The notes under the pieces: generated by a model
What the model was told of the DNA's origin: nothing
The model's database searches: none
What the model saw: the letters and a program-made list of their open reading frames with translations, nothing else
From: Thermomicrobiales bacterium
Lineage (GTDB): Bacteria; Chloroflexota; Chloroflexia; Thermomicrobiales; JALYUS01
Assembly: GCA_038231255.1 (NCBI GenBank)
Contig: JBBRLR010000010.1
Location: 8,989-72,988 of the forward strand
Direction of reading: 5' to 3'
DNA: 64,000 nucleotides
Translations under genes and position numbers: made by a program
Shown: positions 19,185-46,203 of the stretch, in pieces
Layout: each line of letters opens with the position of its first letter
How positions within the stretch are numbered: position 1 is the first letter of the stretch

Positions 19185-19297
19185 CTCGTATCTCGCCCCG
19201 ACGGGGCAGGAGTTGGCACCTTAGCCACGCGCATTGCCTGCGCCGCCGGTTGCCGGGCTTCAACGGGCCGATTACCCTCCACCACTCTGGATACGAG
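19185..19297 (-). promoter_or_regulatory. SAM-I (S-box) riboswitch
   Basis: The minus strand reads CUCGUAUCCAGAGUGGUGGAGGGUAAUCGGCCCGUUGAAGCCCGGCAACCGG...CUAAGGUGCCAACUCCUGCCCCGUCGGGGCGAGAUACGAG. This holds the conserved SAM-I blocks AUC-AGAG-GG-GGAGGG, GGCCCG-UGAAGCCCGGCAACC, GGUGCCAA-UCC and GAGAUA, closed by P1 CUCGUAUC/GAUACGAG. It lies upstream of metX. Confidence 0.9.
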
Positions 19298-33707: not shown

Positions 33708-33926
33708 TCATGCGGCGTCGCGCTGCGTCCACCACCGGCGCAGCGCCACCATCGCCCAGACCGCCTCGACCACGCCGAAGGGCCAAGCGCCGATAAGCCA
33801 GCCATAGGTCGAGGATGCGGCGCAGGCGCAGGCGAAGACGAGGAGCCACCAGGCGGATCGGCGTTCGAGTGCGTAGGAGACCATCATTATCGTCACCGCG
33901 ACCGCGCCGAACAGAGTGAGCGCCAT
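33708..33926 (-). CDS. small two-helix membrane protein, translationally coupled to the FHA-ABC gene
   Basis: The ATG at 33926 overlaps the upstream TGA (TGATG). 72 aa: MALTLFGAVAVTIMMVSYALERRSAWWLLVFACACAASSTYGWLIGAWPFGVVEAVWAMVALRRWW. Confidence 0.5.
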   Translation of the reverse strand: MALTLFGAVAVTIMMVSYALERRSAWWLLVFACACAASSTYGWLIGAWPFGVVEAVWAMVALRRWWTQRDAA

Positions 33927-36490
33927 CAGGCGAGGCGCGGTTCGGGGACGACGGCCTGCGGGCGCAGTTTCACCAGTTGCCGCTCCACATCCTTGCGCCG
34001 GAGCGCCCAGACGGTGATGCCGAGCGAGACGACCACCATCACGAGCAAGATCAGGACGCTCGGCCACGCGCCGATGTAGAAGGGTTCTTTGACATTAGCG
34101 TTGTTCTGGCCGGCCTCCATTCGCGCTGCCGCGTTGACGACGGCGCCAACGCCGGACGCCTGCCCGACTGCCTGCACGCCCCAGTTCCCCGCCACGAACC
34201 ACGAAAGAATTTTGCCCACGACCGGCAAATCCGCCACTTTGATCAGCGTGCCGGAGAAGATGATCTGCGGAATCAGCACAATCGGCACGATGCTCGCAGC
34301 GCGATCCGGGTTCGCGACGAAGGCGGAGAGCAGCATTCCGAGCGCCACCCCGGCGAGTGAGACGGCGATCAGCGTCACGTACGCCTTGATCCACGATCCG
34401 CCAATCGGTTCGAGCCGGGACGGGGTACCGACGATTTTCTGCAGGCGGTACGGCGACAGCACGCCGAGGATGCCGAGGAGCAGCAGGTTCTGGACGAGGC
34501 ACAGGCCCATCAGCACGACGAACTTCGAGGCGAGGTACGGGCCGAGGCGGAGGTTCACCATCCGCTCGCGCCGGAAGATACTCGCCTCCTTGACGATCTC
34601 CCGCGCGGAGTTGGAAACGCCGAACCAGAGCGCGACGACGACGATCAGCGTCGTGAGGGTGGAGGCCTGGTTCGGTCGCCAACTCAGCCCGGTCGGCTGG
34701 CCGATGACGTTGGTTTCGATCAGCACCGTGAAGACATTGCGACCGTAGGTCATCCCCAACAGTAGCGCGATGATCGGCGCTTGCAGGAGCAGGATGGCGA
34801 GGTTGCGGCTGTCCTTGAGGATCGTCGCGACATAGCGCGCGGTCAGGGTTCGGAACTGGCTGAGCGACTGCGCCCGCTGCAGTTTCTGATCCGGCCGGAC
34901 GGCGGGCGGCGGCAATCCTCGCTGTCGCCCTTGCGCGGCGAGCGCCCGACCGATGCGCGCGTCCACATACCGCGCATGGTAGGGCGATTCGGCATACCGC
35001 CGCGCCCATTCCTCCGGCGCGCCCGGCTGCCCGAGAATCACGTAGATGTCCGCGAACGTTTCGACGCCGAAAAACACCAACGCCTTGCGCGGTGGCCCGA
35101 AAAAGGCGAGCCAGCCGCCGGGGGCCACGAAGACGACCTTGTCGCAGAGTGTTACATTCTGCGTCGCGTGGGTAACGAGGATCACCGTCTTACCGGTGTC
35201 CGCCACCTTGCGCATCAGTTGCATCATCCGCGTTTCGAGCCCCGGATCGAGGCCGGAGGTCGGCTCGTCGAGGAAGAAGAGCGTCGGCTCGGTCAGCAGC
35301 TCGACGCCGATCGAGACGCGCTTGCGCTGCCCGCCGGAAAGGCGATGGATCTCGACATCCTTGCGCGCCGTCAGTTCCATCAAATCCATCGCGCGCTCGA
35401 CGCGAGCCTGAATCTCCTCGGGCCGGGTGTCGTGCGGCAAACGGAGGCGGGCGGCGTAGGTGAGCGCCTGCCCGACGGTCAGGTACATCGGCACGATGTC
35501 TTCCTGCGGCACATAGCCGATCAGGGCGCGGAACTCGGCCATATTCGCGTAGGAATCCGTGCCGTTGTAGAGCACCTCGCCGTGCGAGGCGGGGCGGACA
35601 CCGCTGATCGCGTCCAGCAGCGTGGACTTGCCCGCGCCCGATCCGCCGACGATGCAGACAAATTCCCTGGGCAATATCGAGAAGGCGATGTCCCGCAGCA
35701 GGAGGACATGCTCGCCGACCTCCTGCGTGATGTTGATCGCGTCGAGGCGGATCTGATCGTGCTGCTGGCGGAGCGCACCCTGCGCGAACAGGAAGCGGAA
35801 CGGTCCGATCTGCACCCGTGCGCCCTCCGGCAGCGCCGCCTCGCGCAGCCGCTCGCCATTGACGTAGACGCCGTTCGTGCTGTTCAGGTCGCTGATCACG
35901 TACTGCGAACCGTTCCAGCGCACCTGCGCGTGGCGGCGGGAGACCTGCGGATGATCCAGTACGAGGTCGTTTTCACCCGCGCGGCCAATCGTCGCCAGTT
36001 CCTTGCCGTAGAGCATCAAGGAGGCGGCGATGCCACCCTCGTCATCGGCGTTGTTCGGCGCACCGTCAGCGGAGGTCGTGCTCTTCGTCGCAACCGAGCG
36101 CGGCAATCCCCCCTCGATGCGCGTCTCCTGCCGCAAACGGGTGGGGTCAACCCGCTGCTCCGTGTCCACCGAGAAAAGGAGCAGATACTGGCCGAGTTGG
36201 ACGAGGTCGCCCGGCTTGAGCGGCGCACTCTGCGCGGGCTGACCATTGACACGCATGCCGTTCGCGCTGCCGAGATCGCGTGCATAGTACAGGCCGTCGC
36301 TGCTGCGAGCGATCTCCATGTGCTTGCGGCTGATCCAGTCGTCCTTGATGACAATCGTGTTGCCGTCGGCCCGCCCGACCGTCACCGGGCCGGCATCGAG
36401 CGGCACCACCTGCTGCTCCCCATCCGGGCGCCGCACCGTGATCCGCGCGATAGAGGCAGCCGGAATCCCCGGCGATGCAAACCGATCCAC
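33926..36490 (-). CDS. FHA-FHA-ABC transporter fusion (ATPase plus ABC-2/ABCG-type permease), Rv1747-like
   Basis: 854 aa. Two FHA domains (VTVGRADGNTIVIKDDWISRKHMEI..GSANGMRVNG and ATIGRAGENDLVLDHPQVSRRHAQV..NSTNGVYVNG). Walker A GGSGAGKST, signature LSGGQRKR, Walker B LFFLDEPTSGLD and six C-terminal TM helices. Confidence 0.85.
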   Translation of the reverse strand: MDRFASPGIPAASIARITVRRPDGEQQVVPLDAGPVTVGRADGNTIVIKDDWISRKHMEIARSSDGLYYARDLGSANGMRVNGQPAQSAPLKPGDLVQLGQYLLLFSVDTEQRVDPTRLRQETRIEGGLPRSVATKSTTSADGAPNNADDEGGIAASLMLYGKELATIGRAGENDLVLDHPQVSRRHAQVRWNGSQYVISDLNSTNGVYVNGERLREAALPEGARVQIGPFRFLFAQGALRQQHDQIRLDAINITQEVGEHVLLLRDIAFSILPREFVCIVGGSGAGKSTLLDAISGVRPASHGEVLYNGTDSYANMAEFRALIGYVPQEDIVPMYLTVGQALTYAARLRLPHDTRPEEIQARVERAMDLMELTARKDVEIHRLSGGQRKRVSIGVELLTEPTLFFLDEPTSGLDPGLETRMMQLMRKVADTGKTVILVTHATQNVTLCDKVVFVAPGGWLAFFGPPRKALVFFGVETFADIYVILGQPGAPEEWARRYAESPYHARYVDARIGRALAAQGRQRGLPPPAVRPDQKLQRAQSLSQFRTLTARYVATILKDSRNLAILLLQAPIIALLLGMTYGRNVFTVLIETNVIGQPTGLSWRPNQASTLTTLIVVVALWFGVSNSAREIVKEASIFRRERMVNLRLGPYLASKFVVLMGLCLVQNLLLLGILGVLSPYRLQKIVGTPSRLEPIGGSWIKAYVTLIAVSLAGVALGMLLSAFVANPDRAASIVPIVLIPQIIFSGTLIKVADLPVVGKILSWFVAGNWGVQAVGQASGVGAVVNAAARMEAGQNNANVKEPFYIGAWPSVLILLVMVVVSLGITVWALRRKDVERQLVKLRPQAVVPEPRLA

Positions 36491-36581
36491 CTGATTCCCG
36501 CTCCCCTCCCCGGCGCCGCCGAGGTTTCACATCGAATCGTCCCGTGGCAATGAAGCAACGATGCAATGATGACGTGTGCGC

Positions 36582-37703
36582 TCAGTATATCGCGCGCATC
36601 ACGTCTGGCAGGTCAAACGGCCCCGAGGCACGCGCGGTTCCATCGCCTTCCTCTTGAACGACCGGCAACGCGGTCGCGTGACGGACAAAGAGGCGTACGG
36701 CGGCGCCCGGTTCGCTCTCCATCGTCTTCGGCGCGGTGACGCGCAGCGCGAGCGTGCCAACGCGGACCATGTAGCTCGCATGGTCACCGAGATACGTCCG
36801 GCTGGCAATTTCGCCCAATGTGCCCGATGCCCCGCCTGCATCGGGAGTGAGCGCGATGTCTTCCGGGCGAATGACCGCGCTGAACGACGGCGCGGGCGGC
36901 GCGAGCGGCACCACGAGATCGGGTGCGCCGATGGCCCGCACCACGCCGCCGTCGTCCACCGCATCGAGCAGGTTGACCGCGCCGACGAACGCGGCGACGA
37001 AGCGGGTGGCGGGCTGCTCGTAAATCATGCGCGGCGTGCCGACCTGCTCGATTGCCCCGGCGCGCATCACCGCGACGCGGTCGGAGAGCGCCATCGCCTC
37101 ATCCTGATCGTGCGTGACGAATAGGACCGTCGTGCCGACCGATTGCTGCACGCGGCGAATCTCGGCGCGCAGTTCCTCGCGCAGTTTGGCATCGAGGTTG
37201 GAGAGCGGTTCGTCCAGCAGCAGGATATCCGGCTCCCCAACGAGCGCGCGGGCGAGCGCTCCCCGCTGCTGCTGCCCGCCGGAAAGTTCGTGCGGGTACC
37301 GCTCCGCCAATCCGTCGAGGGCGACGAGACTGAGCAGATCGCGCACGCGGGCCGCGCGCTGTTGTGGGAGCACACGGCGCAATTTGAGCGGATAGCCGAC
37401 ATTCGCGGCGAGCGTCATGTGCGGCCAAAGGGCGTACGATTGGAAGACCATGCCGAGGTTTCGCTTGTTCGGCGGCACGAACCGCCTCCGCGCCACGTCC
37501 GCCACAACCCGCCCACCAATGGCGATGACGCCACTCGTCGGCGGTATCAGCCCCGCCACCATATGCAATGTCGTCGTCTTGCCGCAGCCGGACGGCCCGA
37601 GCAGCGTCACGAACTCACCGTCCGCCACCGCGAGATCCACCCCCCGCACCGCGACCGCGTCACCGTACCACTTCGTCACTCCGGCCAACGTCACTTCAGC
37701 CAT
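36582..37703 (-). CDS. ABC importer ATP-binding protein (FbpC/PotA-like)
   Basis: Walker A GPSGCGKTT, LSGGQQQR, LLLDEPLSNLD and a C-terminal TOBE-like regulatory domain. Confidence 0.9.
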   Translation of the reverse strand: MAEVTLAGVTKWYGDAVAVRGVDLAVADGEFVTLLGPSGCGKTTTLHMVAGLIPPTSGVIAIGGRVVADVARRRFVPPNKRNLGMVFQSYALWPHMTLAANVGYPLKLRRVLPQQRAARVRDLLSLVALDGLAERYPHELSGGQQQRGALARALVGEPDILLLDEPLSNLDAKLREELRAEIRRVQQSVGTTVLFVTHDQDEAMALSDRVAVMRAGAIEQVGTPRMIYEQPATRFVAAFVGAVNLLDAVDDGGVVRAIGAPDLVVPLAPPAPSFSAVIRPEDIALTPDAGGASGTLGEIASRTYLGDHASYMVRVGTLALRVTAPKTMESEPGAAVRLFVRHATALPVVQEEGDGTARASGPFDLPDVMRAIY

Positions 37704-37706
37704 GCG

Positions 37707-38444
37707 CTATGACTCCGCCCGCATCTCAGGCGGTAGCATCCGCTCTAGTTCAGCGATCAATGGCGCGAGATCTGCGGTTACAGTTTTCCAGATAATATCG
37801 TCATCCACGTCACCGTAGCGATGAACGAGCACGTTACGCATCCCGCTCACTTCCGACCACGGAATTCCTGGGTGAAGATCACGCGTCGTCCGGGAGACAT
37901 GCGTAGCCGTTTCTCCGATCGTCTGGACAAGATGGAGTACCGCTAACTGGAAAATCTCGTCGGTATCATAAATATCGCGCGTGCGTCCGCTGACAATTCG
38001 CTGTGTATGTCGCGCTTTGTCGAGCATGTCTCCAATGTACAAATTCTCATCTTTCACCATATCACGCCCATACACCGAGCGATTTTCCCGTGCAAGGGTC
38101 ACCTCCTCAGGCGGGTCGCCGTAAAGCGTCTCCACATCTGCGTATACACGATCGCGAATGCGCCATTTGAGATTTTCGATACAGATGAAATCCGCCTCAT
38201 GGGCACTGCCGAACAGGCGGAACAGTTCTTCAGCCACCGAGAAACGGTCGAGTTTCTTCCTCGGTTCGAGGGCATAAAGCACATCAATATCGCTCTCATC
38301 GCGGAAATCGTCGCGCAGCACGGAGCCGAAGAGCGCCAGCCAGCGGACATGGTGCGCCCGGCAAAACGCCGCGATCTCCTCCGGCAAGGCGTGAATCCGC
38401 TTGTGCATGACTGCCGGACTTACCTTATGAACAACCTGCGCCAT
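37707..38444 (-). CDS. fused minimal nucleotidyltransferase (MNT) and HEPN (DUF86) protein
   Basis: Single 245-aa ORF. The N-terminal half has LFGSVLRDDFRDESDIDVL (GSx10DxD NTase motif). The C-terminal half has MRNVLVHRYGDVDDDIIW (Rx4HxY HEPN/DUF86 motif). G+C is clearly lower than in the flanking ABC genes. Its stop lies 3 nt before the ATPase start. Confidence 0.8.
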   Translation of the reverse strand: MAQVVHKVSPAVMHKRIHALPEEIAAFCRAHHVRWLALFGSVLRDDFRDESDIDVLYALEPRKKLDRFSVAEELFRLFGSAHEADFICIENLKWRIRDRVYADVETLYGDPPEEVTLARENRSVYGRDMVKDENLYIGDMLDKARHTQRIVSGRTRDIYDTDEIFQLAVLHLVQTIGETATHVSRTTRDLHPGIPWSEVSGMRNVLVHRYGDVDDDIIWKTVTADLAPLIAELERMLPPEMRAES

Positions 38445-38533
38445 TCGACCGCTTCCTCATCGTGTTCAACGATCCAGTACTGCTTCATCATACGCTATTG
38501 ACGTAGGTATCCGAGGAACGGACGGGGGCGGGG

Positions 38534-40245
38534 TTAGGTTCCCCGCCGCCGCGTCAACGTCTGCGCCGCGAGCGAGCCGCCGAGCGCGACGAGCATCAGG
38601 ACGAGCGCAAGAGCGGCAGCGGGCGCGACAATACCGCTTTCCAGCAGATTGAAGACCGCGAGGCAGGGCACGAAAACGAAGAGCCAGCCGCCGAGCAGCG
38701 CGGGCCGGACGAGCGGAAAGACCGCATCCCGCTGCGCCTGCCACCACGACGCGCCGCTGACCCGCGCGGCGGCGGGCAACGTTTCCGACACACCGGCGAG
38801 CGCCGCGCTCGCCGTGCTAATGCCGAACGTCAGGAAACGGGCGAGGTACGCCAGCAGAATGATCCAGAGGGTATTGTAAAGATGCAGCCCGAAAATCGGT
38901 CGCGCGAAGGCGAGAATGAAGGCGAGTGCGAGGACGGTTCCCGGCACGGCGTACGGCAAAGTCGCCAGCGCTTCCAGTGCGCCGCTGCCCCGGACCCGAC
39001 CGCGCAACCGGAACTGTGCCAGCGCGGCGCCGAGGATCATGATGACCGTTGCGCTCAGGGCGGCGAGCAGGAGGCTGTTGCGGAGCGCGCGCTGCGTGGC
39101 GGCGGTCTCCACAAAGGCGATGTGGAAATTGTGCAGCGTCAGATTCCCCGGCGTCGGCGCGTATCCCGCGACTCGCGTCAACGCGGAAAGCGCGACAGCG
39201 ACGAGCGGCGCGACAAGCACACCGACCGCGAACACGGTGGCGAGAACGGTCACCAGCCAACGCCACTTGCCAAGCGGCAACCGATCCACCGCCCGGCCCT
39301 GCGCGCCCGTGATCGCGTAGTGCCGCCGCGCCAGCAAGCGCCGCTGCGCAAACAACGCGCCGCCCGCCACGGCGACGAGCAGGAGCGACATCGCGGCGGC
39401 GAAGGCGAGGTTGTTGCGCGTGTCGTAGTCGAGCGCGACCTGATAAATGCGCGTCGTCAGGACGTAATACCGCCCAGGGATGCCCATCACCGCCGCGATG
39501 CCGAAGTCCGCGATGCAGGTGACGAAGACGAGAAATGTCCCCGCGAGGATAGCGGGTGCGAGCAACGGCAGGCTGACATCGCGGAAGACGCGGCGCGACG
39601 ACGCACCCGCCACCCGCGCCGCGTCCTCCAGCACCGGCTGGAAGCGGTCGAGGGCCGCGACGACCGGCAGATAAACGAGCGGGTAATGGTGCAAGATGAG
39701 CAGGAAAACTACCCCGCCCGCACCATAGGGGCGGACGAGCGGATCGCCCACCCCCGCAAGGTGCTTGTATGCCTGATTGAGATAGCCGACCGGCCCGATG
39801 ATCTGCAACCAGGCAATCGCGCCGATGAATGACGGCACATAAAACGGCAGCGCGAAGACGAGACGGAAAAACGACGCCGCCGGGAGGTTCGTCCGCACGA
39901 CGAGCCAGGCGAGCGCGACGCCTAGCACCGTGGCGACTACCGTCGCGGCGACACCGACGACCAGCGTATGCCCGAACGCGCTCCGCGTCCGCGCATCCGT
40001 GGCGAGGTCGTGGTACGGCGCGAAGGTGATGGCCGCCGTCGCGCCGACATGGAATGAGCGCCAGACAAGCCGGTACGCCGGGTACAGGACAATAAACGCA
40101 ATCACCGTGACGAGCAGCGCGTACGCCAGCCGCTCGCCGCGAAACAGGTCGCGACCGCGCGCGCGCCAGGCATCCCCGCGTGTGGGGCTGGCGGCTCGAC
40201 GTCCGGCCGGGCCGATCAAACCGGGTACGCTCTCCGGCGTTCGCA
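38534..40245 (-). CDS. ABC importer permease, duplicated (two-domain) FbpB/ThiP-like
   Basis: About 570 aa with 12 TM helices and two BPD-transporter repeats. A GTG at 40245, just after the SBP stop, is proposed as the start. The ORF-track start at 40375 overlaps the SBP gene. Confidence 0.8.
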
Positions 40246-40247
40246 CG

Positions 40248-41489
40248 CTACGCCCCGAAGATGTCCGTGAATTGCTTCTTCGCGTCCGGTAACTGCTTGG
40301 CAATCGCCGGTGCGTCCACCGGGAACTCCTTGATATTCGTAGGCACACCGGCGGGTGGAGCGACGCCTGCCGCAAGCGGAATGTAATTCTGCGTGACGAT
40401 CAGCGCCTGCCCATCCGGCGACAAGACGAAGTCCACGAATGCCTTCGCGGCATCGAGGTTCTTCGTCCCGGCGACGACCGCGATCGGTTCTGTGACCGGG
40501 ATCGCGCCGTCGGTCGGGTAGATCATCTCGATAGGCGATCCTTTCGCCTTCGCCGCCCGCACACCGTTATCCGTGACGATGCCGACGGGCGCTTCGCCGG
40601 AAATGATCTTGTTCAGCGCGTCACCGTTCGCCTGCACGACCGTCATCCCGTTCCGCTGCAACCCCTTCACGAAGTCCGCGCCATACGCCGTGGTGTTGAG
40701 GAAAACGGCGTAGTTGAGCGCCGCCGCGCCCGAATACTGCGGGCTGGGCGAGACAAGTTTCCCCTTGTACTCAGGCTTCAGGAGGTCTTTCCACGTCGCG
40801 GGCTTCGGCAGGTTCGCGGTCGTGTTGACGGCGATCCCACTGTTGATGATTTTCGTGCCTGCATAGTATCCCTCCGCGTCCACAAATTGCTTGTCGAGCG
40901 CACTCGCGAAGGGCGATTTGTAGGGCTGGAGGAATTTATCCGCCTTCAGGTTCTCCATCGTCGGCGCGTCGGCGATCAGCAGGACATCGGCCTGGATGCT
41001 CTTCGCATCCTGCTCAGCGCGCAGTTTGGCGATCACTTTCTCGGTGCCGTCGCGGTAAATCGTGACGGCGACATTTGGGTACTTCTTGTTGAACGCCGTC
41101 TTGAGGCCATCCGCATCCGTCTGCACCGCCGAGGTGTAGAGCGTCACTTTGCCAGCCACACTCGATGAGACGGCGGAGCCGACCGGGGCCGCCGTCCCGC
41201 TCGTGCTCGCCGCGATCGCGGGCGTCGAGGCGCCGGTGGTCGCCGTGACGCCCGGCGCCGCTGTCACGGCAGCAGTCGCGGTCGGCACGCTCGGCGGCGC
41301 GGTCGGACTACCGGCGGGGACGGCGGTACCGTTCGTGCTCGCCGCAACTGCGGGTGTGGAAGCTCCATTCGTCGCGGCAGGCTTCGGCGTCTCGGTCGCC
41401 TTCGACCCGCCGCACGCCGCCAACACAGCCGCAGCCGCACTCGCCGCGATTCCGCTCAAAAAATGTCGCCGTGACAGGCGCTGCACCAT
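40248..41489 (-). CDS. ABC importer substrate-binding lipoprotein (Fe3+/family-1 type) with a long Ala/Thr/Pro/Ser linker
   Basis: From ATG 41489: SRRHFLSG (Tat-like) followed by the lipobox LAAC|GG, then a repetitive linker (GASTPAVAASTNGTAVPAGS.. / GASTPAIAASTSGTAAPVGS..) and an SBP_bac_1/8-like body. Confidence 0.8.
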   Translation of the reverse strand: MVQRLSRRHFLSGIAASAAAAVLAACGGSKATETPKPAATNGASTPAVAASTNGTAVPAGSPTAPPSVPTATAAVTAAPGVTATTGASTPAIAASTSGTAAPVGSAVSSSVAGKVTLYTSAVQTDADGLKTAFNKKYPNVAVTIYRDGTEKVIAKLRAEQDAKSIQADVLLIADAPTMENLKADKFLQPYKSPFASALDKQFVDAEGYYAGTKIINSGIAVNTTANLPKPATWKDLLKPEYKGKLVSPSPQYSGAAALNYAVFLNTTAYGADFVKGLQRNGMTVVQANGDALNKIISGEAPVGIVTDNGVRAAKAKGSPIEMIYPTDGAIPVTEPIAVVAGTKNLDAAKAFVDFVLSPDGQALIVTQNYIPLAAGVAPPAGVPTNIKEFPVDAPAIAKQLPDAKKQFTDIFGA

Positions 41490-41630
41490 GATCCTTGCTC
41501 CTTGCTCCTTGCTTCGCATTCGCTACTTCAGTACATCATCGCCCAGCAGCATCGCATGCGTGATGCTCGCACAAAACGATGATCGAAATGTGAGCGCAGC
41601 ATACCATCCCGCGTCGCGTATACTGCACGG

Positions 41631-42371
41631 ATGGAAGATCGTTCCACCGCGCCCACGCTGCACGCCGCCCCGCTTGTCTGCCCGCACTGCGGCAGTGGCG
41701 ACCTCGCGCGGGACGCGGAGCATCCGCACGAGTTCGTTTGTGCGCATTGCCAGACGCGCTCGCGGATGCTGCCGCGTGGCGGCGCGCTGCTCGTGCTTGG
41801 CTGGGTTTGCCCGGACTGCGGTCACGACAACGAGCGCGGCAACCGCTTCTGCACGCAGTGCGGCACACCGCTCACCAAACCGTGCCCGAACTGCGGCGCG
41901 GCGATGCGCGTCGGCGACAAGTTCTGCAATGCCTGCGGCAAGACCCGCAACCAGCTCGTCGCGGAATGGTACCGGGCGGGCAAGGGCGCGCTCGACGCCG
42001 GGCGACCGTGGGAGGCGATGCCGCCGCTCCAGCGATTGGTCGCCCTCGATCCATCGTACGGCGACGTGCAAACGCTCCTCGAACGGGCGGCGCATGCCGC
42101 CGCTACCCCGCCCGCGCCGCTACCGACTGATACGCCCTCCCCGGCGGCGATCGCAGTGCGCGACGCGATTGCGAGCCTGAAGCGCGAGAAGCGACGCGGC
42201 CACATGGTCGCACGCCTCGTGGTCGTCTCCACGGCGCTCCTTTCCCTTATTATCGCCGTCTCGGCGCTCGTCGGGCTGCTTCTCCATTCCATCGCCTTTG
42301 GCATCCTCTTCTTCCTCTTTGTCTGCGCGCTGATCGTCGCGAATGTCTGGATCGCGTTGCACAACCCCTAA
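41631..42371 (+). CDS. multi-zinc-ribbon protein with a TPR-like middle region and C-terminal TM helices
   Basis: CPHCG..CAHC, CPDCG..CTQCG and CPNCG..CNACG ribbons. C-terminal hydrophobic helices (LVVVSTALLSLIIAVSAL.., ILFFLFVCALIVANVWIAL). Confidence 0.55.
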   Translation: MEDRSTAPTLHAAPLVCPHCGSGDLARDAEHPHEFVCAHCQTRSRMLPRGGALLVLGWVCPDCGHDNERGNRFCTQCGTPLTKPCPNCGAAMRVGDKFCNACGKTRNQLVAEWYRAGKGALDAGRPWEAMPPLQRLVALDPSYGDVQTLLERAAHAAATPPAPLPTDTPSPAAIAVRDAIASLKREKRRGHMVARLVVVSTALLSLIIAVSALVGLLLHSIAFGILFFLFVCALIVANVWIALHNP

Positions 42372-42429
42372 CGAATCATCGAGTTTTACCGCAATGTGAT
42401 TGATTTTTTCAATGTGTTCGTCAATAATC

Positions 42430-42458
42430 TTGACAATATTATCGTAATCAATTAGGCT
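42430..42458 (+). promoter_or_regulatory. putative sigma-70-type promoter upstream of the MFS genes
   Basis: TTGACA (42430-42435), a 17-nt spacer and TAGGCT (42453-42458), in an AT-rich gap. Followed by the small palindrome tgctgacacagca. Confidence 0.3.
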
Positions 42459-42505
42459 CGATCTGTGCTGACACAGCATTCGGTAGAGGATAGGGAGCAG
42501 CGGCA

Positions 42506-43819
42506 ATGCAAACAGTGACTATCGAGGCCACGACAGCACCCGCGCGCCGCGCGCCGATTATGGCGCTGCTGGCCGCGAATGTGATCTCGCTGCTCGGCAG
42601 CATGCTGACATTGATCGCACTGCCGTGGTTCGTCCTCCAAACGACGGGCAGCGCGGCGAAAACTGGCATTGCGGGCGGCTTTGTCGCGCTGCCGGCGTTT
42701 GTCGCGGGGGTGTTCGGCGGCACGCTGGTGGATCGCCTCGGCTACAAACGGTCGAGCGTGATCGCGGACGTGGTGAGCGGCATCGGCATCGCCTGCGTGC
42801 CGCTCCTGTATCACACGGTCGGCCTCGCTTTCTGGCAACTGCTTGCCTTCATCTTCGTCGGCAACCTGCTCGCCATCCCCGGCCTGACCGCTCGCCGCGC
42901 GATGCTGCCCGAACTGGCGACCCTCGCCCGCTGGCGGCTTGAAGGAGTCAACGCGTCGTTCGAGGGCGTCCAATACCTTTCGGTGTTGCTCGGCCCACCC
43001 ATCGCCGGGCTGCTGATCGCGATCATCGGCACGAGCAATGTCCTGTGGCTGGACGCGGCCTCCTTCGCGGCGTCGGCGATCATCGTCGGCGGGCTGATCC
43101 CGCGCGTCGCGTCCGGCATGAAGGACGCGGCGCGCGGCAAATACCGCGACGAACTGATCGCGGGGCTGCGCTTTCTGCGCGGCGACCGTTTGTTGTTCGC
43201 GCTCGCCATCGGCCTCGCCATCGGCAACATGCTCGGCAGCCCGCTCTTCGGCGTCGTCCTGCCCGTCTTCGCACGGCAGACATACGGAAGCGCCGCGCTA
43301 CTCGGCATCCTCGTCGCTGCGACGGGTGGGGGTCAGGTGATCGGCGCGACGCTCTACGGCGTGGTCGGCCATCGGTTGCCCCGGCGTGCCCTCTGGATCA
43401 CCTCCTTCATCGTCGTGCCGCTGCCATGGCTCGTCTTTCTCTTCACGACCTCGCTACCCCTGATCGTCGGGGCGCTTGCACTCGGCAGCATCGTTTCCGG
43501 GCCGACCAATCCGCTCCTGGTGACGATCCGGCACGAGCGCATCCCGCAGGCATTGCGCGGACGGGTTTTCAGTACCTTTTCCGCCATCGCGTCTGTCGCG
43601 CAACCAATCGGGCTGGCCGTGGGCGGCTTCGCGGTGGAGGCATTCGGCCTGAAAGGCACGATCCTCGCCCTGACGCTCGCCGAACTCTCGCTCGGCATCG
43701 CGATGTTCTTTATCCCCGCCCTCTATGACATGAACCGGGACGAAACCGGGAAGAACCGCAAAGACGCAAAGAGCGCAGAGGACGCAAAGAGGGAAAGGAG
43801 AGTCTTGAATGATGCATAA
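42506..43819 (+). CDS. MFS transporter
   Basis: 437 aa with 12 TM helices, paralogous to the next gene. The last ~26 codons (NRDETGKNRKDAKSAEDAKRERRVLNDA) are encoded by a family-1 repeat. Confidence 0.85.
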   Translation: MQTVTIEATTAPARRAPIMALLAANVISLLGSMLTLIALPWFVLQTTGSAAKTGIAGGFVALPAFVAGVFGGTLVDRLGYKRSSVIADVVSGIGIACVPLLYHTVGLAFWQLLAFIFVGNLLAIPGLTARRAMLPELATLARWRLEGVNASFEGVQYLSVLLGPPIAGLLIAIIGTSNVLWLDAASFAASAIIVGGLIPRVASGMKDAARGKYRDELIAGLRFLRGDRLLFALAIGLAIGNMLGSPLFGVVLPVFARQTYGSAALLGILVAATGGGQVIGATLYGVVGHRLPRRALWITSFIVVPLPWLVFLFTTSLPLIVGALALGSIVSGPTNPLLVTIRHERIPQALRGRVFSTFSAIASVAQPIGLAVGGFAVEAFGLKGTILALTLAELSLGIAMFFIPALYDMNRDETGKNRKDAKSAEDAKRERRVLNDA

Positions 43820-46008: not shown

Positions 46009-46085
46009 GCGCCGTAGTCGAGGAAGATCGTGAAGGTTCATAACCTTCAACCGTTAGCAGGGTTCGAGTCTCTCGCGGCGCACCA
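46009..46085 (+). tRNA. tRNA-like gene, anticodon CAU, non-canonical D, variable and T arms (possible pseudogene)
   Basis: Acceptor stem GCGCCGU/GCGGCGC, anticodon arm GAAGG-UUCAUAA-CCUUC, GGUUCGAGUC T-loop, A73 and an encoded CCA. However, the D stem is 3 bp with a 6-nt loop, the variable region is 9 nt, and the T stem has a C-C mismatch and a G.U pair. Confidence 0.45.
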
Positions 46086-46089
46086 TTTC

Positions 46090-46173
46090 GGGGCAGTGGC
46101 GAAACCAGCAGACGCGCCGGACTTGGAATCCAGTTCCCTCCCAGGATCGCGGGTGCAAGTCCCGCCTGCCCCA
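46090..46173 (+). tRNA. class II (Leu-type scaffold) tRNA-like gene with anticodon UGG
   Basis: Perfect acceptor stem GGGGCAG/CUGCCCC and A73. UG at positions 8-9. D arm GCGA-AACCAGCAGA-CGCG. Anticodon arm CCGGA-CUUGGAA-UCCAG with one C-A mismatch. 15-nt variable arm. T arm GCGGG-UGCAAGU-CCCGC. Followed by CC. Confidence 0.5.
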
Positions 46174-46203
46174 CCTGTTCCTTAGCATAACATTAGCAAT
46201 CTG

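Follow-up and report, generated by a model that had tools for sequence, protein, structure and literature searches.

Proteins that join a minimal nucleotidyltransferase (MNT) and a HEPN domain in one chain are known as single-chain relatives of the two-gene type VII toxin-antitoxin pair MntA/HepT. Anantharaman et al. 2013 (PMC3710099) described the DUF86 HEPN family as 'occasionally fused to MNT' and argued that the RNase residues are usually lost once such proteins are domesticated. FhepTA (SO_1440, 276 aa), from prophage CP4So of Shewanella oneidensis, is a fusion of this kind, and Yao et al. 2026 (NAR; PMC13000451) report that the full-length protein is non-toxic and its HEPN half alone toxic, that the tyrosine of the RxxxxHxY motif receives three AMPs from the MNT domain of its own chain, and that the MNT domain also blocks HEPN dimerisation. 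They further describe a short hydrophobic linker (3-5 residues, or 8 in FhepTA) that is essential for cis-AMPylation, two extra HEPN cysteines (C163 and C270) that form a redox-dependent oligomerisation switch, and a likeness to CapRel that the authors draw themselves. Here we analyse a gene of this architecture in a 64,000-nucleotide stretch of contig JBBRLR010000010.1 (hereafter the window) from a Thermomicrobiales bacterium, where it lies between the permease and ATPase genes of an ABC importer. Judged from homologues and synteny, the fused gene is an old occupant of one operon slot, whose body has apparently been exchanged between relatives while its ends were kept. By analogy with the described systems, we consider it moderately probable that the gene is an entrenched, self-AMPylating derivative of a type VII toxin-antitoxin module and leads the transcription unit of the ATPase.

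A single-chain MNT-HEPN protein

The initial annotation of the window had read one 245-aa open reading frame (ORF) with MNT and HEPN domains, a GSx10DxD motif and the motif RNVLVHRY, and the ORF listing and a Pfam profile search bear this out, with the motifs at G40-D54 and R203-Y210 (Table 1). Pfam places Polbeta (PF18765; residues 22-109, E 3.9e-9) and, overlapping it more weakly, NTP_transf_2 (residues 28-93, E 2.6e-5) in the N-terminal half, and HepT-like (PF01934; residues 140-236, E 2.9e-22) in the C-terminal half, all above their gathering scores. Sequence profiles against the PDB find 1wot and 5yep_A (MntA) and 5yep_B/6m6u_B (HepT), and among PDB entries Foldseek ranks highest chains from MntA-HepT complexes of Shewanella and Aphanizomenon (7bxo, 6m6v, 7aer, 7ae9), each match spanning roughly half of the model. 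That model, made by AlphaFold2 with the homologue alignment, has two domains in one compact chain (predicted local distance difference test score, pLDDT, 90.3; predicted template modelling score, pTM, 0.78), and its sole low-confidence block is formed by linker residues 121-130 (mean pLDDT 59). The linker is polar, about 20 residues long and the most variable segment of the homologue alignment; downstream of residue 88 the protein has no cysteine, which leaves the HEPN half cysteine-free.

Is the single chain real? Among 5.8 billion proteins searched, about 50 cluster representatives, 242-261 aa long and 37-84% identical, align over their full length with both halves in one frame; where annotated, they belong to Chloroflexota, Thermomicrobia or Thermomicrobiales. 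The caveat raised with the initial annotation was that a missed stop or frameshift might have joined two ordinary genes, mntA and hepT, and two observations could speak for it: two-gene forms exist at the same locus in two relatives (L184 and L018), and many single-frame tblastn matches in other genomes run through a stop codon. Against this, the roughly 50 independent representatives come from many samples and assemblers and have the same uninterrupted frame, the linker region is translated and conserved, and the model is one compact two-domain chain. The pairwise ratio of non-synonymous to synonymous substitution rates (dN/dS), moreover, is 0.10-0.19 for the fused gene and 0.09-0.25 for the substrate-binding protein (SBP), permease, ATPase and downstream FHA-ABC genes, values that place the fused protein under purifying selection, as its neighbours are. 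An artefact is ruled out by the uninterrupted homologues, and we give it practically no weight.

The same question was put to the wider family, where the initial annotation had regarded the fusion as an unusual architecture; that view gives way to the precedents cited above and to the frequency of such chains. An HMMER scan of 1.84 billion representatives gave 13,190 matches at E<=1e-3, and the best 150 of these include 37 single chains with MNT before HEPN and 12 in the opposite order. Examples of the latter, in which HEPN leads and MNT follows, are P0244, P0257, P0260 and P0304; in the sections of the FhepTA paper (PMC13000451) drawn on here, we found no discussion of such reverse-order chains. 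Among 80 GTDB loci with relatives by tblastn, 14 apparent single-frame fusions were checked for stop codons, and those not upheld are mostly two-gene pairs in the same or the +1 frame. Four of the 80 loci hold a true single-ORF fusion that has both motifs (L018, one from Planctomycetota, one from Anaerolineae and one from Lyngbya); a fifth fusion, L019, is of the form called type B below and is without Rx4H, and the remaining loci are two-gene pairs. Fusion is thus a recurrent minority state and not a novelty.

Conservation extends to the residues expected to matter. G40, S41, D52 and D54 are invariant in 36 of 36 aligned homologues, alleles that have no RNase motif included, and R203, H208 and Y210 are invariant across the 22 homologues of the window's own allele class, type A. 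This invariance, together with a dN/dS of about 0.15, indicates that the RNase site is under selection; in this allele class both predicted catalytic sites and the predicted acceptor tyrosine are, by alignment, intact and selectively maintained.

Occupancy of one operon slot

Synteny was surveyed for every homologue with a long enough contig, and insert-less orthologues were located by ATPase protein search followed by contig look-up; the ATPase orthologues stand clearly apart at >=67% identity, the next matches lying at <=61%. An MNT/HEPN module stands between permease and ATPase in 12 of the 13 orthologous operons (ATPase 67-93% identical), with occupied slots down to 68% ATPase identity (L001-L017, L018, L019, L179 and L184). 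All fused homologues of the lineage (38-84% identity) lie between this permease and this ATPase (placed in P0005, P0007, P0015, P0030, P0032, P0033, P0035 and P0039 and in the GTDB loci L018 and L019), and their modules end 3 nucleotides (nt) before the ATPase start or overlap it. The loci also have a wider synteny in common, comprising genes for a DZR zinc ribbon, two MFS_3 proteins and an FHA-FHA-ABC-ABC2_membrane protein. The fusion P0058 (37% identity) is located elsewhere and not in the slot. Two loci lack the module: L182 (ATPase 67%, same synteny) holds other genes in the slot, with no MNT/HEPN trace by tblastn, and in the outgroup L183 (ATPase 57%) the ATPase directly follows the permease, module and remnant both being absent. 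A separate ATPase scan of genome contigs met only generic ABC ATPases at <=53% identity and yielded no insert-less orthologues. With 12 of 13 orthologous slots occupied and L182 and L183 empty, the insertion is lineage-specific yet ancient within this Thermomicrobiales/Chloroflexota lineage. Our literature search found no report of HEPN toxin-antitoxin modules inside ABC transporter operons.

These observations bear on a different history, in which a selfish module recently inserted into an intact SBP-permease-ATPase operon and is kept only by addiction. The initial annotation had pictured the gene as such a wedge, citing its composition, and the composition it cited is real: G+C is 0.55 in the fused gene against 0.64-0.68 in four neighbouring genes, and G+C at third codon positions (GC3) is 0.61 against 0.80-0.86. 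MNT/HEPN pairs are also plentiful on plasmids (1411 PLSDB records), and in the outgroup L183 permease and ATPase are contiguous. But the slot is filled in nearly all orthologous operons over a wide range of ATPase divergence, synonymous divergence (dS) of the fused gene is at least as high as that of the flanking genes, and its dN/dS is low; the window's ORF listing shows the gene flanked by no transposase, integrase or repeat; and the nearest plasmid and phage relatives are <=37% identical, a search of a phage collection having given no meaningful relatives at all. A recent insertion is thus very unlikely. Conservation at this position combined with host-like composition had been named at the outset as the pattern that would contradict an insert; the position is indeed conserved, and the composition is not host-like, since GC3 of the module is low in every relative (0.60-0.75, against 0.77-0.90 in neighbours).

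Allele forms of the slot

What occupies the slot varies: an intact fused gene, a fused gene without the RNase motif, a two-gene pair, a pair and a fusion in tandem, a deletion allele, or nothing. In L184 (ATPase 79%), separate genes encode MntA (113 aa) and HepT (117 aa), and 3 nt part this canonical pair from the ATPase gene; L018 has a two-gene pair followed directly by a type A fusion; and in L179, the deletion allele, RNVLVHR is joined out of frame to the tail.

The fused form without the RNase motif, type B (L015, L016 and L019), encodes a protein 38-46% identical to that of the window, within flanks that are as near to the window as those of type A relatives (SBP 87%, ATPase 84-89%, FHA-ABC gene 86-87%; flanking genes overall 84-93%). 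Nucleotide identity between the window and type B is 80-88% at nt 16-165 of the gene, 30-50% at nt 165-700 and about 80% again beyond about nt 706 and on into the ATPase gene, and the proportion of synonymous differences (pS) is 0.18-0.46, as in the flanks, for codons 2-56 and 0.67-0.78, which is saturated, for codons 57-233. Divergence that is saturated in the body between conserved ends argues for recombinational replacement and not for local acceleration; the gene body thus appears to have been swapped by recombination, the gene ends being shared between forms. All copies in L018 have a common first stretch of about 56 codons and a common PPEMRAEP end, and such shared ends are obvious substrates for exchange. 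Type B is homologous to type A along its whole length (hhalign probability 100%, 245 columns), and its MNT body is nearest to the two-gene MntA of L018 and L184, at 38-62% identity against 31-42% for type A. It keeps G40, S41, D52 and D54, has lost R203, H208 and Y210 (reading, for example, MYRAVSEDG), and has strongly conserved C-terminal residues of its own together with a helical-bundle fold.

Such a form suggests that the nucleotidyltransferase may have been domesticated to adenylylate something other than its own chain, whether a component of the transporter, a different protein or a small molecule, with the HEPN domain serving in substrate binding or regulation, as in the kanamycin and streptomycin nucleotidyltransferases or GlnE, and the RNase being vestigial. 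The nucleotidyltransferase residues are invariant in every allele, whereas Rx4HxY is lost in type B and truncated in L179; the route is the one described for fused MNT-HEPN proteins by Anantharaman et al. 2013 (PMC3710099); and the whole-chain Foldseek matches are ANT(4')/KNTase, AAD(9), AadA and HalB. Those matches, however, are poor (root mean square deviation 10-14 A), the window protein has no Pfam KNTase_C/DUF4111 match and has Rx4H, canonical two-gene MntA/HepT pairs sit in the same slot of L184 and L018, and the RNase residues are invariant under low dN/dS in the 22 sequences of the window's class. For the window's allele we regard this reading as unlikely.

Replacement of gene bodies between close relatives, with saturated synonymous divergence, is also what a small defence hotspot under diversifying selection might look like, and the fused protein could then be a CapRel-like sensor for abortive infection, in which the MNT domain holds the HEPN RNase closed until a phage cue arrives. 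Varied cargo enters the slot, including tandem MNT/HEPN copies and a HicB-like gene accompanied by a 68-aa ORF, the CapRel analogy is the one drawn by Yao et al. (PMC13000451), and the N-terminal half matches the PADLOC candidate system PDC-S09 (E 9e-19). That match, however, covers only the generic MNT half, selection within the allele class is purifying and not diversifying, and the ORF listing shows no phage or defence-island genes near the fused gene in the window. A role as anti-phage sensor therefore has a low probability in our estimate; it is compatible with, and not exclusive of, an entrenched, self-AMPylating module.

Expression signals of the module and the ATPase gene

The initial annotation had the fused gene on the same strand as the importer genes, beginning 89 nt beyond the permease stop and ending 3 nt short of the ATPase ATG, with the ATPase ribosome-binding site inside the HEPN coding end, and in each of these points it was right. 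The TAG stop occupies 37707-37709, the gap 37704-37706 and the ATPase ATG 37701-37703, and the spacer on the other side (permease ORF end 38534) is 38445-38533. The embedded GGAG lies 9 nt upstream of the ATPase ATG in the window, and in every allele form a GGAG is found in the end codons of the module, 8-10 nt before the ATPase start. In insert-less L182 the ATPase gene has a GGAGCCGCCGC-GTG identical to that of the insert-bearing L013.

At the other end of the gene, a block of about 60 nt before the module ATG (GCGTATGATG with TATGAT, plus GAGGAA) is conserved whatever is further upstream, GCGTATGATG itself being conserved in 10 of 12 aligned upstream regions. Further upstream, the interval between permease and module ranges from the 89 nt of the window, through about 210 nt in L001 with a hairpin and then T6 at the equivalent place, to intervals containing a 68-aa ORF and a HicB-like gene (L013), an MBL-fold gene (L018 and L184), an antisense 320-aa ORF of no family match (L007:6839-7801) or an antisense MFS gene of 564 aa (L179:4010-5704); an antisense MFS gene of 413 aa also parts permease from ATPase in L182 (L182:4609-5850). 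Because antisense genes split the permease from the module in some relatives, module and ATPase must be transcribed on their own there. A single SBP-permease-ATPase string, as the initial annotation had it, is thus unlikely to be one operon, and module and ATPase probably form a unit of their own. From the module's own promoter-like box and ribosome-binding site and from the ATPase ribosome-binding site embedded in it, we infer that, throughout the lineage, the module is the leading cistron of a transcription unit that it forms with the ATPase gene.

In the window, the hairpin over the permease stop, found in both the minimum free energy and the centroid folds, has no T-run behind its 7-bp stem, the RNA fold of the whole spacer is not better than that of shuffled sequence (z -0.86), and a scan of 36400-41800 for consensus promoters and terminators called nothing in the permease-module spacer.

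On a further-reaching reading, the module would have been co-opted as an obligatory leader and regulator of the importer ATPase, through its promoter and translational coupling, with a tie to ATP through self-AMPylation of the RNase, and type B would be a later, fully domesticated stage. This we hold to be improbable; if true, ATPase synthesis or mRNA stability would be tied to the ATP level of the cell, and the locus would form a natural series from two genes through a tandem and a fusion to a catalytically dead HEPN domain.

A proposed entrenched, self-AMPylating module

How, then, might a toxin-antitoxin-type gene persist in this slot? The explanation that we favour, at moderate confidence and by analogy with FhepTA and MntA/HepT, is the entrenched, self-AMPylating type VII derivative proposed at the outset. 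The MNT domain would oligo-AMPylate Y210 in cis with ATP, and this modification, together with steric hindrance of HEPN dimerisation, would keep the RNase inactive; if the MNT half or the AMP groups were lost, an mRNA-cleaving toxin would be freed. The module would supply its own promoter-like box and ribosome-binding site and so lead the module-ATPase bicistron, and the ATPase expression signals embedded in it may help its retention. Entrenchment of this kind would explain why the gene ends are kept while the body is exchanged, loses its RNase site, stays as two genes or is partly deleted, and the embedded ATPase signals would explain how the RNase site could be lost, in type B and L179, without loss of the gene.

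Several observations weigh against this explanation. Both halves score below the cut-off of 60 bits for the NCBIfam equivalogs (NF047752 MntA 39.7 bits, NF047751 HepT 32.6 bits). The linker, about 20 residues with a helix, differs from the 8-residue hydrophobic linker of FhepTA, and with no cysteine in the HEPN half the FhepTA redox switch cannot apply. The promoter scan made no call at TATGAT and no good -35 element is evident, and read-through from the permease is possible in the window, where the spacer is 89 nt and has no T-run terminator. L182 carries the ATPase without the module, which is thus not intrinsically required. The persistently low GC3 of the module is not accounted for by simple vertical descent; it would fit either with gene bodies drawn time and again from an external pool or with codon selection that is weak because the gene is poorly expressed.

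The locus matters beyond the function of this one protein. One orthologous slot in uncultured Thermomicrobiales presents pair, tandem, fusion, RNase-inactivated fusion, deletion and empty states, so that the domestication path proposed comparatively in 2013 is laid out at a single locus. Its alleles are matched natural variants for asking how fusion alters toxin control, and the locus is a candidate case of a toxin-antitoxin-type gene kept since expression signals of a housekeeping gene sit inside it.

Importer genes and neighbourhood

Table 1. Coordinates of the fused gene, its domains and signals, and the importer genes in the window
Feature	Position	Strand	Remarks or basis
Fused MNT-HEPN gene, type A allele	37707..38444	(-)	ATG start, 245 aa and TAG stop, uninterrupted ORF
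MNT domain, aa 1-112	38109..38444	(-)	Pfam, PDB profile, Foldseek
Nucleotidyltransferase motif G40-S41-x10-D52-x-D54 (LFGSVLRDDFRDESDIDVL)	38283..38327	(-)	Alignment of homologues
Interdomain linker, aa 113-132 (helix 113-125, then flexible loop)	38049..38108	(-)	AlphaFold2, alignment
HepT-type HEPN domain, aa 133-236	37737..38048	(-)	Pfam, PDB profile, Foldseek
RNase motif RNVLVHRY, R203-x4-H208-x-Y210 (Rx4HxY)	37815..37838	(-)	Y210 is the predicted AMP acceptor
ATPase ribosome-binding site GGAG	37713-37716	(-)	Within fused-gene end codons GCG GAG TCA TAG
Fused-gene ribosome-binding site GAGGAA	38453..38458	(-)	8 nt before ATG, read from sequence
TATGAT -10-like box, putative promoter of module-ATPase unit	38487..38492	(-)	42 nt upstream of fused-gene ATG
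GC-rich hairpin, 7-bp stem, 7-nt loop	38527..38547	(-)	Spans permease stop; in minimum free energy and centroid folds
ABC importer ATPase (ABC_tran + TOBE_2), 373 aa	36582..37703	(-)	ORF, Pfam
Fused two-domain permease (double BPD_transp_1), maximal ORF	38534..40375	(-)	ORF, Pfam, NCBIfam
Substrate-binding protein (SBP_bac_6/8/11, TAT-type signal)	40248..41519	(-)	ORF, Pfam, NCBIfam

No substrate of the importer is assignable from NCBIfam: the best models, PhnS2/T2/U2 for 2-aminoethylphosphonate, fall well short of their cut-offs, with similar scores for the ferric and polyamine models. The nearest models of the ATPase are PhnT2, UgpC, PotA and a ferric ABC transporter ATPase, all below cut-off. 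Relatives of the permease have 583-595 aa, and the maximal ORF of the window, with a TTG start at 40375, shares 128 nt with the SBP gene, so that the permease itself probably begins further downstream. In the SBP, a long low-complexity tether rich in Ala, Thr and Pro (residues ~35-125) joins the TAT-type signal to the folded domain.

The other cargo of the slot includes an MBL-fold metallohydrolase gene directly upstream of the two-gene MntA/HepT pair (L018:640-1392 and L184:4545-5297), with the GPMC-system MBL and PhnP phosphodiesterase as best NCBIfam models, all below cut-offs. It could be an AMP-removing phosphodiesterase partner of the toxin-antitoxin module, or it could be part of the importer pathway, a role that could fit with the 2-aminoethylphosphonate transporters as the importer's nearest models. 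In the more distant operon L013, the interval between permease and module (L013:7349-7953) holds the 68-aa ORF and the HicB-like antitoxin gene (Pfam HicB_lk_antitox), and the slot thus collects more than one toxin-antitoxin-type module. On the long-read contig of L015 (6108-9857), the flanks of the type B gene are broken, with the permease in pieces of 357, 117 and 132 aa and the ATPase in pieces of 79 and 146 aa, the result of either assembly frameshifts or a decaying importer.

Elsewhere in the window, the region 33926-36490 (-) is conserved in place in all relatives that reach that far, insert-less L182 included. A second local trough of G+C (0.52-0.54 at 42150-42600) coincides with the 3' end of a double-zinc-ribbon gene (41631-42371, +) and the start of an MFS gene (42506-43819, +). 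There is an S-adenosylmethionine (SAM) riboswitch at 19185-19297 (-) (Rfam RF00162, 72 bits), and ARAGORN predicts an adjacent tRNA-Met/tRNA-Pro pair at 46009-46175 (+), of which only the second reaches the Rfam tRNA gathering score.

Comparison with known systems

The closest described protein is FhepTA, a likeness that we draw from architecture, motifs and size: both are single chains with MNT at the N-terminus and HEPN at the C-terminus, both have GSx10DxD and RxxxxHxY with the acceptor tyrosine by the RNase motif, and they have 245 and 276 aa, respectively. Unlike FhepTA, whose gene is prophage-borne, the window protein is encoded on the chromosome, where its gene has a conserved place within an ABC importer locus, and not on a prophage or mobile island.

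To the two-gene MntA/HepT systems, the protein is related in both domains by profile and fold, with identical catalytic motifs, and L184 and L018 carry a true two-gene version in the equivalent slot. It differs in being one gene and not two (mntA upstream of hepT) and in falling short of the equivalog cut-offs, and the fusion fixes at 1:1 a stoichiometry that is 2:6 or 2:2 in the two-gene complexes. ANT(4')/KNTase (1kny), AAD(9) and AadA have a similar plan, a pol-beta nucleotidyltransferase followed by a helical domain of the HEPN clan in about 250 aa; their helical domains, however, have no Rx4H and bind antibiotics, whereas the window protein keeps Rx4HxY. CapRel(SJ46), the fused form of the toxSAS toxin-antitoxin, offers a parallel of another sort, as a single chain that unites toxin and antitoxin and in which the latter has become a regulatory domain, but its domains are unrelated (the toxin being RelA/SpoT-like) and it is phage- or prophage-borne. 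Single-chain MNT-HEPN architecture, in sum, has been described already, and the window protein is a divergent fused MNT-HEPN protein with a long linker and a cysteine-free HEPN half.

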